A stretch of DNA of 64,000 bases from Limnochordia bacterium. GTDB lineage: Bacteria > Bacillota > Limnochordia > DTU080. Position 1 is the stretch's first letter, and every line of letters starts with the position of its first letter. Location of the stretch: NCBI GenBank assembly GCA_050951545.1, contig JBMNJG010000011.1, positions 288,001 to 352,000 of the forward strand, written 5' to 3'. A model generated the notes under the pieces. It did not search any database. It saw only the letters and a program-made list of their open reading frames with translations, and was not told where the DNA came from. A program made the translations under genes and the position numbers. Positions 3,990 through 59,745 of the stretch are shown here, piece after piece.

Positions 3990-5231
3990 ATGGCAGATCT
4001 AATGGCAGATTCGCTGGTTACCCAGTTGTGCCGCCTCGATCTGCTGTTGCTGGCGGTGGTGGTGCTCTATCTCATCTACTGGCAGTATCTGCGTATCGGT
4101 CGCACGGAGTCAGTTCTCTATGGCCTGGCGTTGGACAATCCGCGCTTTCAGCTCGCGCAAGCCTTGGTTGCCGGGCTGGCAGGTGGCCTATTGGCCACAT
4201 TCCTGTTCGTGTGTGTGGGCATTCCTCTTTCTGGCATCGGTATCTGGTATATCTGGATGGTGGCCTTGGTTCTGGCGCTCTTCAGCCCTCGCTTCTTCTG
4301 CTTCTCGTATGCCGGAAGTCTAGTTTCTTTGGCTCACCTTGTGTGGGGCGTACCTCGTAACCTGCACGTGCCAGCGGTGCTGGCGCTGATAGGCGCACTG
4401 CATTTGGTGGAGGCCTTCTTAGTCGCTGTCAATGGGGCCGAGGGCGCAACACCTGTCTATGTACGTTCGCATCAGGGCCATGCGGTAGGAGCCTTCTTGC
4501 TGCAAAGGGCCTGGCCCATTCCTTTTCTGGCATTGGTGGCCGGCGGGCTGGGCCCAGCGCTTATGCCTGTACTTCCCTGGTGGCCGCTTATTCGGTCGGA
4601 GGCTTATGTAAGCGTGTTGGACGAGCGCTTGATCTACTCGTTGCTACCAGTCTTTGCCGCACTGGGTTACAGTGAGCTGGCAATCACTTGCAGACCGCGG
4701 GAAAAAGCACGACATACTGCTTCATTACTGGTGGTCTATGGCCTGCTCTTGCTGGCGTTGAGCGCGTGTGCTCAGCACCATGAAGGGTGGACCTTAGTCG
4801 CAATTGTCTTCGCTCCATTGGGCCATGAGGCGGTAGTCTACTGGGGTAGGCAGCGTGGAATCCGTGGCGAACCCCTTTATGTGGCCCATCGAGGGGTGAT
4901 GGTCCTGGGGGTACTGCCACAGAGCCCGGCCGCCAAGATGGGGCTTGTGGAGGGTGACGTGATTGTGCGATTCAACGACGAATGCGTCAGGAGCAAGAGC
5001 GAACTCGCAGCAGCGATGTATCCTTGGGCCATCGCTGCTCAGGTTGAGGTGAGGAACCTTTTCACGGGTCGAACCCAGACGCTGGTCTGTGAGGGCAAGG
5101 TGCCTCCTTTGGGTGCGATCTTGGCTCCAGGTCCCGATGAGCCATGCATTGTGGATCTGCGTGAACCAGGCGCGATAAGTCGCTGGTGGCGCGAGCGACG
5201 TCAGCGCTGGGCTGGAGGTCGCAGCTTTTGA
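3990..5231 (+). CDS. PDZ-domain polytopic membrane protein (MinJ/YvjD-like)
   Basis: Multiple TM helices, RFFCFSYAG, LHLVEA, C-terminal PDZ (SPAAKMGLVEGDVI). Lies between ctpA and uvrB as in B. subtilis. Confidence 0.8.
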   Translation: MADLMADSLVTQLCRLDLLLLAVVVLYLIYWQYLRIGRTESVLYGLALDNPRFQLAQALVAGLAGGLLATFLFVCVGIPLSGIGIWYIWMVALVLALFSPRFFCFSYAGSLVSLAHLVWGVPRNLHVPAVLALIGALHLVEAFLVAVNGAEGATPVYVRSHQGHAVGAFLLQRAWPIPFLALVAGGLGPALMPVLPWWPLIRSEAYVSVLDERLIYSLLPVFAALGYSELAITCRPREKARHTASLLVVYGLLLLALSACAQHHEGWTLVAIVFAPLGHEAVVYWGRQRGIRGEPLYVAHRGVMVLGVLPQSPAAKMGLVEGDVIVRFNDECVRSKSELAAAMYPWAIAAQVEVRNLFTGRTQTLVCEGKVPPLGAILAPGPDEPCIVDLREPGAISRWWRERRQRWAGGRSF

Positions 5232-54047: not shown

Positions 54048-55527
54048 TACACCGTTTGAGGTGATCGTGGGTCTCGAAGTTCACGCAGAACTGCTTACAG
54101 AGTCAAAGATATTCTGCGGTTGTTCGACGGCCTTTGGAGCCACGCCAAATACGCAGGTATGCCCTGTTTGCTTGGGCCTGCCAGGTACGTTACCAGTGCT
54201 CAACGAAAAGGCCGTTGAGTATGCCGCGAAAGCAGGTCTGGCTCTGGGGTGTGCCATTTCCTTGGTCAGCCGGTTCGATCGTAAGCAGTATTTCTATCCG
54301 GACCTTCCCAAGGCTTACCAGGTCTCGCAGTTTGATCGTCCCCTGTGTACAGACGGACGCGTGGAGTTCATGCTTGGCGGTGAGCTGCATGTAGTCAGGA
54401 TCATGCGGGTGCATATGGAAGAAGAGGCTGGTAAGTCTGTCCACTCCAGCGATAGCTTGCGCGACTCGCAGTACTCGCTTATCGACTACAATCGTGGTGG
54501 ACTAGCACTCATTGAGATCGTCACCCACCCCGACATGCATTCGGGTGACGAAGCCAGGCTCTTTATGGAGCGCCTGCACACTCTGCTGCGCTATATCGAG
54601 GTGTCAGATTGCAGGATGCAGGAAGGATCTCTGCGTTGCGATGCCAATGTCAACCTGAAGATCCTCTCCGGAGAGCAACCGATTCGTACCCCTATTGTGG
54701 AGATCAAGAATCTGAACTCCTTAAGAGCCTTGGAGCGAGCGATTGACTACGAGGCGCAGCGTCAGTACCATGAGTACCTTGATGGTTCGTGGCACCCCGG
54801 CATGCCATCTGGGAAGGTGACGGCGGGGTGGAATGATATCGAGAGTCGCACCTATGTGCAGCGTGAGAAAGAACACGCCGACGATTACCGTTACTTCCCT
54901 GACCCTGATATTCTACCGGTCGTAGTGCGCGAAGGGCAGGTAGAGGCGTGGCGCAGGCAGCTGCCCGAGCTGCCTGCAGCGCGCGAAGCTCGTTTCATAA
55001 GTGAGTATGACCTTCCCGCATATGATGCTGCAGTGCTTACAGCCTCTCGTCCCATCGCTGACTTCTTTGAGGCAGTGGTCGAGCAGTGTCATGACAGCAA
55101 GATGGTCAGTAACTGGATCATGGGCGAGTTGCTTCGGTTGCTCAAGGAGGCGGAAGACGACTCGGAGCATGCTCTTCTCTCGGCCCCCATCACCGCTGCA
55201 GGCTTGGCGCAGTTGCTGCTCATGGTCAAGGAGGGGCGCATTAACGCCAACAGCGGTAAAGAGGTCTTAGAGGTCATGTACCGCACTGGTCGTACGGCTG
55301 AGGACATTGTGCATGAACGTGGCCTAGAACAGATTAGCGACACCGATAAGCTAGATCGCTTAGTCGCAGAGGTCATCGACAAGCATCCTGAGGTGGTAAC
55401 TGAGATCAAGGGCGGGAAGGTAACGGCTATCGGCTTTCTCGTGGGTCAGGTGATGAAGGCGACCCGTGGTCAGGCCAATCCAAAATTGGTCAATCAGTCG
55501 TTGCGGGACCGACTGGGCGTGGATTAG
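54040..55527 (+). CDS. gatB: Asp/Glu-tRNA amidotransferase subunit B
   Basis: GLEVHAEL, YFYPDLPK, EEEAGK, LRCDANV, EIKNLNS, DYRYFPDPD, YqeY tail. Confidence 0.97.
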   Translation: MDDTPFEVIVGLEVHAELLTESKIFCGCSTAFGATPNTQVCPVCLGLPGTLPVLNEKAVEYAAKAGLALGCAISLVSRFDRKQYFYPDLPKAYQVSQFDRPLCTDGRVEFMLGGELHVVRIMRVHMEEEAGKSVHSSDSLRDSQYSLIDYNRGGLALIEIVTHPDMHSGDEARLFMERLHTLLRYIEVSDCRMQEGSLRCDANVNLKILSGEQPIRTPIVEIKNLNSLRALERAIDYEAQRQYHEYLDGSWHPGMPSGKVTAGWNDIESRTYVQREKEHADDYRYFPDPDILPVVVREGQVEAWRRQLPELPAAREARFISEYDLPAYDAAVLTASRPIADFFEAVVEQCHDSKMVSNWIMGELLRLLKEAEDDSEHALLSAPITAAGLAQLLLMVKEGRINANSGKEVLEVMYRTGRTAEDIVHERGLEQISDTDKLDRLVAEVIDKHPEVVTEIKGGKVTAIGFLVGQVMKATRGQANPKLVNQSLRDRLGVD

Positions 55528-55537
55528 GAGCTGGGGA

Positions 55538-56395
55538 ATGTATGGCGAGCTACTGCGGATAGGGCCCATTGCCCTCTATAAGTATGGGACCGCGTTGGCC
55601 GCGGCTTTTCTGGTTGGCGCATGTTTGGCGATGTCGGAGGCTCGGCGCCGCAGGCTGGACACGACAGTCATCGTTGAGCTAGTGGTGCATCTGATGGTGT
55701 TGGGCCTGATTAGCGGTAGAGTGGGCTACATCCTCCCAGACTTGGGTTTTTACCTAACCCATCCGAGTGAGTTTTTCAGGGTGTCGGCCGGTGGGCTGAG
55801 CTATGTTACCGCGTTTGTGGTGGCTGTTGGCTACACTCGTTTCTACGCGAAGCGTCGTGGGCTGCGTTTCTGGGAGCTGCTAGATATATTGGCTCCGGGT
55901 CTAGCCGCCGGGCTGATCATTGGGTCGCTAGGAGCCGTGGAGTGGCAGCCGGCGAAAGGCGCCGTGCATCTAGGCCCTATCTACTGGTCGCCACCGGTAC
56001 TGCTCTTTTTCACCATCGAATACGCTGGGTGTTGGTACATCATGGCGTCGCGACGTCGTCTGCCCGAAGGGCGACGCTTCTGCCAGATTGTGGCCGTGGA
56101 TGCTCTGGCTCGGATGCTGAGTAGTCTATGGGCCTGGATCCTCTATGAAGAGTTCTTGCCGCACGCTTTGTCGACGCTTGTGGGCGCGGTGTTTCTTGTT
56201 GGGGCGTTGGTGTTCGGGCAGATGCTCACCTTTCACCACAGCGGGTTACTGGAGAGTGCGGCGGCAGGTGAGATGACGCAGGCGCGGCGACCCCGCAAGC
56301 GGAGGCTGCCCGCGCGTCAGCGCGCAGTGCTTGCCGCCACTTGGCTAGGCTTTTATCTGCTTTTGGTCGGCTTGCTAGGTCGGACGCCGATGTAG
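55538..56395 (+). CDS. Lgt-like membrane protein (diverged prolipoprotein diacylglyceryl transferase)
   Basis: RIGPIALYKYG, GRVGYIL, GGLSY, LDILAPG match the Lgt N-half, but catalytic motifs are missing. Confidence 0.7.
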   Translation: MYGELLRIGPIALYKYGTALAAAFLVGACLAMSEARRRRLDTTVIVELVVHLMVLGLISGRVGYILPDLGFYLTHPSEFFRVSAGGLSYVTAFVVAVGYTRFYAKRRGLRFWELLDILAPGLAAGLIIGSLGAVEWQPAKGAVHLGPIYWSPPVLLFFTIEYAGCWYIMASRRRLPEGRRFCQIVAVDALARMLSSLWAWILYEEFLPHALSTLVGAVFLVGALVFGQMLTFHHSGLLESAAAGEMTQARRPRKRRLPARQRAVLAATWLGFYLLLVGLLGRTPM

Positions 56396-56402
56396 ATGCC
56401 AG

Positions 56403-56414
56403 CCCAGCTGCTTG
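56403..56414 (+). repeat. Left 12-bp direct repeat (candidate TSD/att core)
   Basis: CCCAGCTGCTTG, 7 bp after the lgt-like stop. Confidence 0.75.
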
Positions 56415-56462
56415 GGGGCCACGCAAGAAACTGCGGCAATCTTCCTGCGGTCGCTTGGGTTG

Positions 56463-56585
56463 GTGGTAAGAACCTAGCGATGCGGTCTTCGCGAAGCCCT
56501 TTTTGCTCATTTTGGTCGCCCGAAGGGCTTTTTTCACCGCCTAAGGGCACACTTTCCCGCCTTGATTTCGCTTCTGGGGCTACCG
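56463..56585 (+). repeat. Partial, diverged copy of the 406-bp unit
   Basis: GTGGTAA..AGCGATGCGGTCTTCGCGAAGCCCTTTTTGCTCATTTTG..CTTCTGGGGCTACCG; 472 bp upstream of the equivalent position in copy A. Confidence 0.9.
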
Positions 56586-56809
56586 TGGATACGCTTCACT
56601 TCGGCCCTACCAAAATGGCCTAGAAAGCTCACGGTAAGCTAGGCCGGTAAAACAGCGCGCTCACCAAAAACCTGCCATCGATCCAGGCCCCAAGCTGCGG
56701 GCCATGGATTCTGATGGACAACTCCTCCATGAGTTGCCCACAGACTCCACAGCCCCGACCAAAGACATCCATTGATTCATTTATTCGTTGTTTCTGGCTG
56801 TTATCTAGT

Positions 56810-57917
56810 TGGACACGCTCGCGAGACTGGCTCGGTAGTCGGACAGATGCACCCGGATTGGTACGTGAGTCGGGGCCAAGAATCCGACCGTGATGGCAAA
56901 ATAGCCGCCCCATCAACCCCTGGGCGCAATGTACGTGGTAAAAGTGCAGCGATGCGGCCTTCGCGAAGCCCTTTTTGCTCATTTTGATCGCCCGAAGGGC
57001 TCTTTTCCCCGCCAAGAGCACGCTTTCCCGTCTCATGGCCCTTCTGGAGCTACCGGGCAGTACATAACCGAACAGTGTCGATCGCCTTTTTCCACTCAGT
57101 CGATGGGGTCAGCTCCCCAGTGCGCGATCACAGCGGGCTCGCTCGGGTCCCTCTGCGAACCGACCCTTCGGTGTTAACCCGGTGGGTGTGTTTCGAAAAG
57201 GGTGGACGGACACCATGCACACCCTCGCGAGACTCGCTCGGTAGTCGGACAGATGCACCCGCATTGGTACGTGAGTCGGGGTCAAGAATCCGACCGTGAT
57301 GGCAAAAGAGCCGCCTCATTAACCCCCGGGGCCAATGTACGTGGTAAAAGTGCAGCGATGCGGCCTTCGCGAAGCCCTTTTGGTTGGTTTGGACGGCCTG
57401 AAGGGCTCTTTCCCCCCAAAAAGAGCGCGCTTTCCCGCCCTGGCGGCCCTTCTGGGGCTACCACGCAGCACATAACCGAACGGTAGTGACTGCCTTTTTC
57501 CACTCAGTCGATGGGGTCAGCTCCCCAGTGCGCGATCACAGCGGCTCGCTCGGGTCCCTCTGCGAACCGACCCTTCAGTGTTAACCCGGTCGGTGCATTT
57601 GGAAGAGAATGGACGGATCAATGGACACGCTCGCGAGACTGGCTCGGTAGTCGGACAGATGCACCCGGATTGGTACGTGAGTCGGGGCCAAGAATCCGAC
57701 CGTGATGGCAAAATAGCCGCCCCATCAACCCCTGGGCGCAATGTACGTGGTAAAAGTGCAGCGATGCGGCCTTCGCGAAGCCCTTTTTGCTCATTTTGAT
57801 CGCCCGAAGGGCTCTTTTCCCCGCAAAGAGCACGCTTTCCGGCCTTGATGCCTCTTCTGGAGCTGCCGGACGGTACATAACCCGACGGTGGTGGTACCTT
57901 TTTCCCACTCAGTCGAT
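56810..57917 (+). repeat. Tandem 406-bp non-coding repeat, ~2.7 copies (starts 56810, 57216, 57622)
   Basis: Marker GCGATGCGG at 56949, 57355, 57761. 56810-57012 is identical to 57622-57824. Confidence 0.97.
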
Positions 57918-58006
57918 GATCCGAGGGGGAAATGCTGTCGACTCCCGGTGGCCACTGGGTCTTAGCTGGCAATGCGCGCGCAGTCAGCGAAGAACTATTG
58001 TCTGTG

Positions 58007-58035
58007 GAAGGATTCTGGAGCCGAACATAGAATTC
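58007..58035 (+). promoter_or_regulatory. sigH-like promoter of the nuclease gene
   Basis: gaAGGAttc-...-ataGAATtc with a 17-bp AGGA-GAAT spacer. Confidence 0.5.
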
Positions 58036-58049
58036 AGCATTGAATCAAT

Positions 58050-58063
58050 CGAACACATGGTCG
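58050..58063 (+). promoter_or_regulatory. Putative LexA box
   Basis: CGAACACATGGTCG; one mismatch to CGAAC-RNRY-GTTCG, between the promoter and the RBS. Confidence 0.45.
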
Positions 58064-58081
58064 TTATGTGAGGTGAGGCCC

Positions 58082-59143
58082 TTGTACTCTCTCTATGTAG
58101 ATGAGGTGAACGTGCCGCTCTCACTGCTACTGACTCGCGAGCTAAAAGCCAGCGAGAAGATCGTTTGGATGGCCTTAACGATGGATGATCAGCTGGAGGA
58201 AAGTTTCCTTTTCTCGCCCAGCCGCCTGGGGCGGCGCACGGGTATGTCCCGGCCTACCGTTCGCAGGGCGACAGCCAAGTTAACCACCGAGGGCTGGTTT
58301 GCTCCACCGGCTAGGCGGGGACCTAGCCAGACCGCGGCACAGAAGCCATCCCCGGATAGGGTCTCCGTACCTGTGGAGTTAGTCATGGCTACTGAAATCC
58401 ATGCACAGGCCAAATTGGTTTATGCCCTACTGCTGTCCAAACCTACGGACCCACCTCGCAAAAGGCAGTTCACATACGCTGAGTTAGCCGGCCGGATGAG
58501 TCTGAGCCCCCAAACCATCAAACACGCGGCTCGTCAGTTGGCCAAGCATGGTTGGCTGGAGATGGAGCAGGCGCACAAGCGGGCACCGATTCGCTTCACT
58601 CTCCACAACCCGGTTGATAAGCGAAATGTAAAAGAAATACTAGACGTGCAGGATGAGCTCCACCGCGCTACGCACCTCGGAGAGGCTCTCATGCAGGCTA
58701 TCTTCTTGGCGCTTGTCGATTGCCTTGACTTCGACGACGGAATGCGCCCAGGTTTCATGAGGAACCCAGCAACTGGCAAGCGTCTGGAGGTCGATCTCTT
58801 CTATTACTTGCACAATACGGCCATGGAGTTCAATGGGGCGCAACACTACCGCGTCACGGAGCGGAATTCGGCTGAGCAGGTCCATAAGCAGCAATGCCGT
58901 GACCAGACCAAACAGCAGATCTGCGCTAAGAAGAAGATCAAGCTGATCGTGATTCAGGCTCACGAGCTGTCCTGCAAGATCATCAAGCGCAAGATTGACA
59001 GGCGGCTGCCATTCCGGCGCGGTCAGGACTTCAACCGGAAGCTCATCAACTATCTCGAGTGTAGATGCGGTGAATACCAGCAAAGAATAGATGAGCGCGG
59101 CTGGGGAACCGCCAGCCAATCTGAGAGAAAGCAAGACGAGTAG
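58082..59143 (+). CDS. Tandem winged-HTH + Vsr/DUF559-like endonuclease
   Basis: Two internally similar wHTH units; C-terminal GE..RPGFMRNPATGKRLEVD..AMEFNGAQHY..RDQTK..IKLIVI. TTG 58082 follows GAGGTG. Confidence 0.78.
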   Translation: MYSLYVDEVNVPLSLLLTRELKASEKIVWMALTMDDQLEESFLFSPSRLGRRTGMSRPTVRRATAKLTTEGWFAPPARRGPSQTAAQKPSPDRVSVPVELVMATEIHAQAKLVYALLLSKPTDPPRKRQFTYAELAGRMSLSPQTIKHAARQLAKHGWLEMEQAHKRAPIRFTLHNPVDKRNVKEILDVQDELHRATHLGEALMQAIFLALVDCLDFDDGMRPGFMRNPATGKRLEVDLFYYLHNTAMEFNGAQHYRVTERNSAEQVHKQQCRDQTKQQICAKKKIKLIVIQAHELSCKIIKRKIDRRLPFRRGQDFNRKLINYLECRCGEYQQRIDERGWGTASQSERKQDE

Positions 59144-59438
59144 TCACCTTGGGTCACCTTGTTCGTTTCGTCAGGGCTCACATCGCAGGAGGAGATGAAC
59201 CCTTTATCCGAGGCTGGAGGCCGCTGGCTACCCCATTGGCAGCGGATGCGTAGAAAGCGCCTGTAAGCAGGTTGTTGTTAGGCGCCACAAGCAATCTGGA
59301 ATGCGTTGGAGCCAACTTAGGGCACAGCAGATGCCAAACGTTGCAGCATACTCCCACGGTGAACAGTGGGACGATTTCTGGGAGAGGCCAGGGGCAGCAT
59401 GATTAGTAACGGGTGTTCGCCGCGATTTCACGTGTGCA

Positions 59439-59450
59439 CCCAGCTGCTTG
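59439..59450 (+). repeat. Right 12-bp direct repeat (candidate TSD/att core)
   Basis: CCCAGCTGCTTG, 7 bp before the valS -35 box. Confidence 0.75.
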
Positions 59451-59457
59451 CTTGTGC

Positions 59458-59486
59458 TTGACAGCCGGGAGGTTGAACTGTATGAT
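59458..59486 (+). promoter_or_regulatory. sigA promoter of valS leader
   Basis: TTGACA-17 bp-TATGAT. Confidence 0.8.
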
Positions 59487-59511
59487 GTGGAAAACTGGCT
59501 TATTGCACGGT

Positions 59512-59745
59512 GATGAAGGGGAGGAGTAACGGTTCAGCCCCGAAAAAAGAGAGGCTGCCCTTGGCTGGGAGGTAGCCCGGACGGACCGTGAATGTCGCCC
59601 TGGAGCAGCTTATCCCAAAATAGGCCGGGTGCGCCCGTTATCGCGTGTAGCAAGCGCCTTTGGTGCCCCCTTATGTGGTGTCAAAGGAACTAAGGTGGTA
59701 CCGCGCGAGTCTACGCGTCCTTATGGAGGACGCGTTTTTGTTTTT
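59512..59745 (+). ncRNA. T-box riboswitch (Val) upstream of valS
   Basis: AGTA, AGAGAG and GCTG stem-I motifs; GAA followed by GTC (59594-59596); T-box AAGGTGGTACCGCG (59692-59705); terminator ACGCGTCCT-tatgg-AGGACGCGT-TTTT. Confidence 0.93.

Follow-up and report, generated by a model that had tools for sequence, protein, structure and literature searches.

The window analysed here is a stretch of 64,000 nucleotides (nt) from the genome of a Limnochordia bacterium (GCA_050951545.1, contig JBMNJG010000011.1, positions 288,001 to 352,000). Between an lgt-like open reading frame (ORF; 55466-56395, Pfam LGT match with an E-value of 1.4e-22) and the promoter-like site of valS, it carries a repeat-rich insertion whose sole conserved gene encodes a protein of 353 amino acids (aa) with helix-turn-helix (HTH) domains and a nuclease-like C-terminal part. 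The valS promoter-like site and the T-box leader behind it (59504-59725; Rfam RF00230, 101 bits) are undamaged by the insertion. A sequence-only reading of this locus had described it as a selfish mobile element without a transposase, bounded by 12-bp direct repeats and imperfect inverted ends. The 12-mer CCCAGCTGCTTG is indeed present at 56403-56414 and at 59439-59450 (repeat search, family D9), with the spacings that had been described: the first copy starts 7 bp past the lgt stop codon (TAG, 56393-56395) and the second ends 7 bp before the TTGACA at 59458. The exact recurrence of a 12-mer within 3.3 kb is not rare in itself (chance expectation ~0.3 by our own arithmetic); this one is meaningful because it is located exactly at borders that are set independently by ~20 other copies in the genome.

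These borders were obtained by searching the window genome (G000, 3.64 Mb in 16 contigs) with window positions 56396-59460 as the query. The other copies start at window position 56415 and stop at 59441, giving an element of 3027 bp (56415-59441). The direct repeat is therefore real, but the true target duplication is 9 bp long (AGCTGCTTG, 56406-56414 and 59442-59450), the CCC at 59439-59441 being the conserved last three bases of the element and lying outside the duplication. The imperfect terminal inverted repeats that had been proposed are also real, with 11 of the first 16 bases of the left end matching those of the right end in reverse complement and an alignment over ~27 nt that requires one gap. 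The window copy and its borders are made up as follows.

56406-56414, no strand: left copy of the 9-bp target-site duplication AGCTGCTTG; the copies elsewhere, which begin at 56415, are flanked on each side by different 9-mers
56415-56441, plus strand: left terminal inverted repeat GGGGCCACGCAAGAAACTGCGGCAATC, its start conserved in 11 to 13 copies
56463-56584, plus strand: partial first repeat unit (repeat family D2, 4 copies)
56585-56818, no strand: 234-bp piece of an unrelated repeat, replacing ~160 bp of the first unit in the window copy only
56810-57918, plus strand: tandem array of 406-bp non-coding units, 2.7 copies (Tandem Repeats Finder score 1753)
57919-58081, plus strand: unique leader with ribosome-binding site GAGGTGAGG at 58070-58078
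58082-59143, plus strand: gene for the 353-aa HTH-nuclease, candidate mobility enzyme (Pfam, PHROG, conservation, codon-position variation)
59144-59184, plus strand: start of the post-gene segment, shortened by a ~295-bp deletion (compared with copies C5a, C4a, C3, C7b and C16)
59185-59441, plus strand: tail, what is left of a second mini-element belonging to this family; 9 other full-length copies match it at 94-97.5% identity
59415-59441, plus strand: right terminal inverted repeat ...CGATTTCACGTGTGCACCC, at the end of the tail
59442-59450, no strand: right copy of the 9-bp target-site duplication AGCTGCTTG (comparison of copies with their flanks)
59458-59725, plus strand: context outside the element, valS promoter-like TTGACA-17-TATGAT and T-box leader (promoter scan, Rfam)

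The search of the window genome returned 69 DNA matches, ~15 of which span both the repeats and the gene at 90-94% identity, and ~20 copies or fragments can be recognised at DNA level at unrelated loci. The copies share their termini, starting with GGGGCCACGC... and finishing with ...CGTGTGCACCC at the same positions in all. At five of eight end pairs perfect 9-bp duplications were found, their sequences unrelated to one another: AGCTGCTTG for the window copy, accttccct for the copy on C5, cacgcccga for C4, accatacgg for C7 and cttcgcgaa for C3. A sixth pair, on C12, matches at eight of nine positions (gagtaaaat and gagtagaat). The expectation that other copies with different flanking duplications would be present in the same genome is thereby confirmed, and the locus is, as described, a selfish mobile element with direct repeats and inverted ends at its borders. 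Homing had been suggested as one route of mobilisation. No single conserved cognate target was found for the whole element, its copies lying in unrelated loci with different 9-mers, and this pattern indicates that the whole element moves by transposition and not by homing.

Empty sites had also been predicted, and were identified in two genomes of the same genus, G001 (95% complete) and G002 (91% complete). In both, lgt and valS are adjacent and free of the element, with only 4 bp separating the lgt stop from the TTGACA (-35 box), an unusually tight packing of the two genes. The site of copy C4a is empty in G001 and that of copy C5a in G002, so that all three of the insertion sites examined have an empty counterpart in a same-genus genome. 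The target 9-mers are not comparable base for base, because G001 and G002 are only 75-81% identical to the window genome.

Comparison of the copies gives a canonical core consisting, in order, of the left end, a variable number of 406-bp units (~2 to 5 per copy), the unique leader, the gene and an inner right end (...CCGCCATTTCACGTGTGCACCC), which lies ~130 bp past the stop codon of the gene. In many copies a gene-less second mini-element, with left and right ends of its own, follows 16 bp further on, and the 9-bp duplications flank the composite of core and mini-element. In the window copy the unique left-end sequence extends to ~56462, and the ~295-bp deletion, at 59184/59185, has removed the inner right end together with the left end of the mini-element. 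The ~300-bp trailer noted in the sequence-only reading is therefore present, but is recast as the remnant of a mini-element fused to the core by this deletion; its 9 other full-length copies all stop at the same base, and a tenth match (C14) consists of the last 38 nt only. With regard to the 234-bp piece, comparison of its occurrences indicates that it is a fragment of another, uncharacterised repeat. It is 97-98% identical at C14:2151-2384, C13:20071-20303 and C7:70981-71212 of the window genome, where it runs on into common downstream sequence, and weaker relatives adjoin two genes of a distant subfamily of the element's gene (subfamily D; C9:54040-54498 and C2:70317-71053). It is also worth mentioning that in the leader, at 57925-57950, CCGAGGG...CTCCCGG is swapped in two copies for CCGAACG...CTTTCGG (or GTGAACG...CTTTCGG); these paired changes, read by eye, would preserve a short hairpin.

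The gene has a likely TTG start at 58082 behind the ribosome-binding site, as in database cluster P0001. The N-terminal part of its product has two winged-helix regions (Pfam HTH_36, MarR and GntR type), which PHROGs relate to phage O-like and DnaD-like initiators. The C-terminal domain, at approximately residues 198-318, is matched by PHROG families annotated as homing endonuclease, HNH endonuclease and intron-encoded nuclease (E-values 1.4e-11 to 6e-6), and the homing-endonuclease families match all seven of the family members tested. DUF2726 matches nine of 81 homologs, all under the curated cut-off (best E-value 4.2e-5), and clusters of DUF2726 and DUF559 are among the Atlas feature matches (0.89), to be taken as a lead only. 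Matches at 33-37% identity were also obtained to SPbeta-like and Bacillus phage proteins. Across the alignment of 81 homologs E249 and K277 are invariant, while N228, P229, T231, D238, R239, Y241, G252, Q254, H255, Q270, R273 and D274 are at least 90% conserved; the conserved acidic and lysine residues may form the active site. DUF2726, DUF559 and Vsr are grouped inside the PD-(D/E)xK superfamily in the sections consulted of a survey of these enzymes (PMC3424549). The profile matches give weak to moderate support for a C-terminal nuclease domain of PD-(D/E)xK type, resembling Vsr, DUF559 and DUF2726.

The absence of known recombination domains that had been noted from the sequence stands. No DDE, HUH, tyrosine or serine recombinase or reverse transcriptase domain was reported in the ORF by Pfam, NCBIfam, PHROGs or PADLOC. 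No recognised transposase class (DDE, DEDD, HUH, serine, tyrosine) appears to be encoded, matches in Pfam, NCBIfam, PHROGs and PDB sequences being of winged-helix or nuclease type. NCBIfam gave HTH-level matches only, as did the PADLOC defence models for six proteins (weak, E-value 1e-5 or weaker), and searches of PDB sequences with the protein and with the 81-row profile retrieved winged-helix regulators only, the C-terminal domain being without a match.

Variable sites among 13 copies are distributed over codon positions 1, 2 and 3 as 18:7:43, and positions 1 and 2 are 99.0% identical against 96.4% at 153 four-fold sites, a contrast that shows purifying selection on the protein. The statement that the element has no transposase is thus probably wrong in spirit, as the HTH-nuclease is its only conserved, selected gene and the best candidate for a mobility enzyme.

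The family is abundant in the window genome, with 32 matches in a profile search. By tblastn, subfamily A, to which the window copy belongs, has 13 uninterrupted gene copies with 97-99% aa identity to the window protein and two further copies split in two pieces (~99% per piece). Subfamily B has four copies at 54-55% aa identity, and subfamilies C and D have ~9 copies at 46-49%, in addition to several fragments. Among the 2850 ORFs of at least 200 aa in this genome, no paralogous group is larger than subfamily A with its 15 members; those that follow have at most seven (solute-binding proteins, subfamily C). A left-type end whose relationship to that of subfamily A can still be recognised (GGGACCACGCAAAAGACAGCGG) is kept by subfamily B; one of its copies has an end of right type upstream and two others have one of left type downstream, no copy showing both. 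The arrays of subfamily B (~277 bp period) and subfamily C (93-94 bp period) lie downstream of the gene, and in subfamily C a 50-nt motif is found once upstream and at least three times downstream, all in direct orientation (e.g., L015:3322-3614 and 5161-5210, C13 of the window genome). Two subfamily C copies (C16 and C5:216 kb) are followed by tRNA-like sequence, as read by eye in the alignment.

Relatives are also found well outside this genome. A profile search of 1.84 billion representative proteins returned 238 clusters at E-values below 1e-30 and 1166 below 1e-10, mostly of ~330 aa and matched over nearly the entire profile, for which the database has no name or "hypothetical protein". 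The longest contig was at most 2.4 kb in seven of the 10 clusters looked up, as is expected for repeats. In species-representative genomes 69 loci were found in Limnochordia, Symbiobacteriaceae, Thermaerobacter and other Bacillota metagenome-assembled genomes, often several per genome. Matches were present in 14 of 41 related genomes (0 to 32 each), and two same-genus genomes, both fragmented assemblies, had no family match in the profile search. No match to plasmids was obtained by tblastn. The predicted association of homologs with repeats was upheld, tandem repeats with a period of at least 40 occurring within ~1.5 kb of the gene at 13 of the 69 loci, two of which may be orthologous, against three arrays further out. 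In other genomes the paralogs are 70-83% identical, with similarity ending ~15-200 nt from the gene, and the end motifs of the window genome were not found beside the homologs there. A scan of 34 loci for 9-bp duplications with inverted ends gave two independent weak candidates (L036 and the orthologous L038/L040), where ~0.1-0.6 would be expected by chance (own arithmetic), and the inverted repeats of these candidates did not extend.

The 406-bp units had been described as structured non-coding repeats. The array is present and non-coding, three-base (codon) periodicity being absent from the units, but no sign of the structure was seen: in Rfam only the valS T-box was found, with nothing else at E-values up to 1, and alifold, run on 35 units, gave energies no better than those of column shuffles (z -0.39 for the plus strand, -1.81 for the minus strand). 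These 35 near-full units, identified genome-wide, have a mean identity of 86% to the reference unit and form 25 clusters at 8% distance, even neighbouring units being different. Their best-conserved blocks, at unit positions 121-160 and 281-320 (in the window copy ~57336-57375 and 57496-57535), may be protein-binding sites, and the array is most likely a reiterated leader or binding-site region and not an array of RNA genes. The possibility that the units are head-to-tail mini-elements, raised by a degenerate right/left junction seen by eye, was rejected: local alignments scored 19, while shuffled sequences averaged 14 and reached up to 21. The two winged helices recall an iteron-type replication initiator, which would be expected beside short (~20-bp) tandem iterons; tandem repeats do adjoin the gene at 13 of the 69 loci, but with periods of 42-406 bp, and the attached nuclease domain and the transposon-like behaviour of the copies are further differences.

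Four metatranscriptome runs from biogas fermenters yielded contigs covering 58201-59155 (0 to 7 differences in each piece), together with small parts of the left end and of a unit (57113-57275). Such contigs may contain DNA and give neither strand nor ends, and the parts not covered are uninformative; they indicate the presence of the organism or a close strain in the biogas samples and are no proof of transcription. Metagenomes of bioreactors and digesters also contain the element. A deletion copy of the element (C14:234-356) lacks 913 bp (window joint 58490 to 59404), and this joint together with the flank of that copy is present in contigs of three of the runs, pointing to the same strain-level insertion in those samples.

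With regard to known systems, the element resembles a classical insertion sequence (IS), such as the ISLre2-like one in the same genome, in its multiple copies, ~27-bp imperfect inverted repeats, 9-bp duplication, single gene and empty sites. It differs in having winged helices and a Vsr/DUF2726-like domain in place of any DDE, DEDD, HUH, serine or tyrosine domain, and in carrying an internal tandem array of 0.8 to 2 kb. To our knowledge, the well-studied bacterial IS families each use one of a few catalytic classes (DDE/RNase H-like, DEDD, HUH, serine and tyrosine). No description of an IS encoding such a protein was found in a search of an open-access library, ISfinder and supplements lying outside it.

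TnsA of Tn7 does not work alone: the DDE protein TnsB and other proteins are its partners, and the duplications are 5 bp. TnsA is described as a PD-(D/E)xK endonuclease and component of the transposase in the consulted part of the superfamily survey (PMC3424549). The likeness lies in a restriction-endonuclease-fold enzyme, here predicted, taking part in transposition; the present element, on the other hand, encodes no second protein, and no match to TnsA was seen in Pfam searches. The same sections of the survey list YhgA/Rpn (Transposase_31), PDDEXK_2 and DUF4420 as "putative transposases" of the superfamily. As here, these are PD-(D/E)xK proteins suspected of mobility, but variable genomic context is the sole basis given and inverted ends or duplications are not mentioned in those sections; they show no sequence match to the family protein. 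The homing endonuclease I-Bth0305I has a Vsr-like catalytic domain (PMC3239194). It and the other EDxHD enzymes share with the family protein, as predicted here, a DNA-binding N-terminal part, a C-terminal Vsr-related nuclease domain and a selfish context. They differ in residing in introns or inteins and in homing to one cognate site with a 2-base overhang, whereas the present element occupies unrelated sites with 9-bp duplications. The I-Bth0305I structure was not retrieved by the profile search of PDB sequences at E-values up to 10. Finally, a minisatellite-bearing miniature inverted-repeat transposable element of Porphyromonas gingivalis also combines inverted ends with an internal tandem-repeat array, but is non-coding according to the consulted part of its description (PMC4596501), while here the array, of 406-bp units, accompanies a conserved gene.

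On balance, 56415-59441 is probably one copy of a DNA transposon that is IS-like and autonomous and owes its mobility to its own nuclease, an interpretation held with modest confidence. It builds on what the data establish about the number of copies, their ends and duplications, the empty sites, the selection acting on the gene and its nuclease-like conserved residues, and is favoured because the HTH-nuclease is the only conserved and selected part besides the ends and because no recognisable IS with matching ends was found. The element would have inserted between lgt and the valS promoter, duplicating 9 bp of the target. The winged helices would bind the terminal inverted repeats and probably also the conserved blocks in those 406-bp units that adjoin the left end, and the nuclease domain would cut the ends of the element and/or make the 9-bp staggered cut in the target, the gap repair of which would then yield the duplication. 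The stronger proposal, that a winged-helix and PD-(D/E)xK protein moves the element and makes the 9-bp duplications alone, with no DDE, HUH, serine or tyrosine enzyme, and so represents a new class of prokaryotic transposase, is put forward tentatively.

A number of observations weigh against an autonomous transposon. We know of no PD-(D/E)xK nuclease that transposes alone. The assignment of the nuclease fold leans on weak to moderate profile matches, and Pfam has no match in the C-terminal part of the window protein. A clear duplication is absent at two of the eight end pairs (C2 and a short-form copy on C4), and in other genomes ends and duplications are not definable, the paralogs there being too diverged. 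Subfamily C is bounded by direct and not inverted copies of its 50-nt motif. The ISLre2-like element of the window genome also makes 9-bp duplications, and the sharp step in divergence at the borders of the gene would fit a separately moving cassette at least as well.

This last point leads to the alternative that survives best, although it is considered unlikely: an older, diverged, repeat-bearing carrier with inverted ends, and a free-standing gene cassette of homing-endonuclease type that spreads or is homogenised among carriers by double-strand-break repair and gene conversion, transposition being due to something else or past. The copies diverge in a mosaic, followed over window positions 57396-59235 and the sequences aligned with them, in which gene and tail are ~97% alike, silent sites included, and the other non-coding parts 80-88%. 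Pairwise identity between copies is 96.7% at third codon positions of the gene, 88% in the first 160 nt of the left end, 86% in the last unit, 85-87% in the leader and 80-84% in the first 40 nt past the stop codon. Mean identity over 13 copies rises from 0.86-0.92 to at least 0.98 within ~20 nt of the start codon, and drops to 0.88-0.81 after the stop; expressed otherwise, identity is 96.4% at four-fold sites, 87% in the leader and 84% over the 40 nt past the stop. The leader variants are discrete alternative blocks that assort among the copies. A cassette would also be in keeping with the matches of the nuclease domain to phage homing-endonuclease families, with the similarity between paralogs of other genomes ending so close to the gene and with the position of the subfamily C gene within a direct-repeat array. 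However, the last 200 nt of the non-coding tail are 97.1% identical and hence as conserved as the silent sites of the gene in the same copies, so the divergence step is not peculiar to the gene. No intact carrier precisely lacking the gene was found, the gene-less copies being irregular deletions with differing borders, and ordinary gene conversion limited to the best-conserved segment could yield the same pattern. The well-kept duplications suggest that the insertions are young, an older age giving p ~0.04 for at least five perfect duplications out of eight (own arithmetic). Candidate causes of the mosaic are gene conversion in the best-conserved segments, modular recombination of diverged sublineages and homing of a gene cassette. 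A deaminase-like mutation bias was absent, transitions and transversions numbering 184:127 in the diverged non-coding parts and 47:23 in the gene.

Somewhat less plausible still is a non-autonomous element moved in trans by a DDE transposase encoded elsewhere, for example the ISLre2-like one, with the HTH-nuclease as a passenger or accessory; mobilisation in trans was among the routes originally suggested. Four DDE types are recognisable among the multi-copy transposases of the window genome, namely IS1634-like (DUF4277 and DDE_Tnp_1; ends CTGGTTTTCCGCACCC, 6-bp duplication), ISLre2-like (UPF0236; ends GTGTGTGTAAGATGTTTACGGG, 9-bp duplication), IS21-like (Mu-transposase C, with IstB) and IS4/Tn5-like (Tnp_DNA_bind, with ends different from those of this family). 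PD-(D/E)xK enzymes are not known to perform strand transfer. The ISLre2-like element (C16:149390-151012, with copies on C9 and C2; UPF0236 E-value 7.7e-97, ends GTGTGTGTAAGATG...) is flanked by the 9-bp duplication cgcaccgca, and a gene-less short mini-element with the same ends as the present family adjoins several copies of that family. Against this, no partner with matching ends turned up: no end identified among the four multi-copy DDE elements resembles those of this family at its tip, in a comparison that left single-copy transposases unsurveyed, and genome-wide scans for the end motifs found only this family and chance matches. Moreover, 13 of the 15 close gene copies have no interruption and purifying selection acts on them, which is unexpected for a passenger, and the gene family is itself multi-copy and patchily distributed in 13 other related genomes. 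An IS21-like element is inserted in the 406-bp array of one family copy (C10:60283-64230), the IS21-like type being present in the genome as an IstA/IstB pair, and the IS4/Tn5-like ORF also matches DruA. Two more multi-copy ORFs, C6:31731-32996 (422 aa) and C3:93447-94115 (223 aa), have four copies each and no Pfam match at an E-value of 1e-5, the 223-aa ORF belonging to a longer repeat (at least 3.6 kb, 99.9% identical).

An RNA-associated nuclease system, the remaining suggestion of the sequence-only reading, in which structured guide or scaffold RNAs would be encoded in the 406-bp units, is very improbable: by eye, a T-run after a terminator-like hairpin can be made out in each unit, as can a promoter-like TTCTGG-N15-CATAAC, and small metatranscriptome contigs overlap one unit, but the promoter scan did not find that site, contigs from RNA libraries cannot reveal transcription, strand or ends, the Rfam and alifold analyses gave no signal, the units are the least conserved part of the element (86%) and the period and position of the repeats vary between subfamilies (406 bp upstream of the gene, 277 bp and 93 bp downstream).

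The element bears textbook footprints of transposition (inverted ends, duplications fixed at 9 bp, sites empty in relatives, a recent expansion to ~15 copies), yet its only gene appears to encode a DNA-binding nuclease of PD-(D/E)xK type, whose family is unnamed and counts hundreds of clusters in metagenomes. Annotation pipelines label such genes "hypothetical" or "HTH protein" and overlook the elements, which are the most abundant repeat in this genome and probably break metagenome assemblies. Should the gene prove to be a cassette on a carrier, the family would illustrate clearly how selfish DNA can be nested. A nuclease that proved to be the transposase would provide a compact site-binding enzyme for study, add a catalytic class to transposition and link homing-endonuclease-like nucleases to true transposons, and the elements would constitute a new IS family across Limnochordia, Symbiobacteriaceae and other Bacillota.

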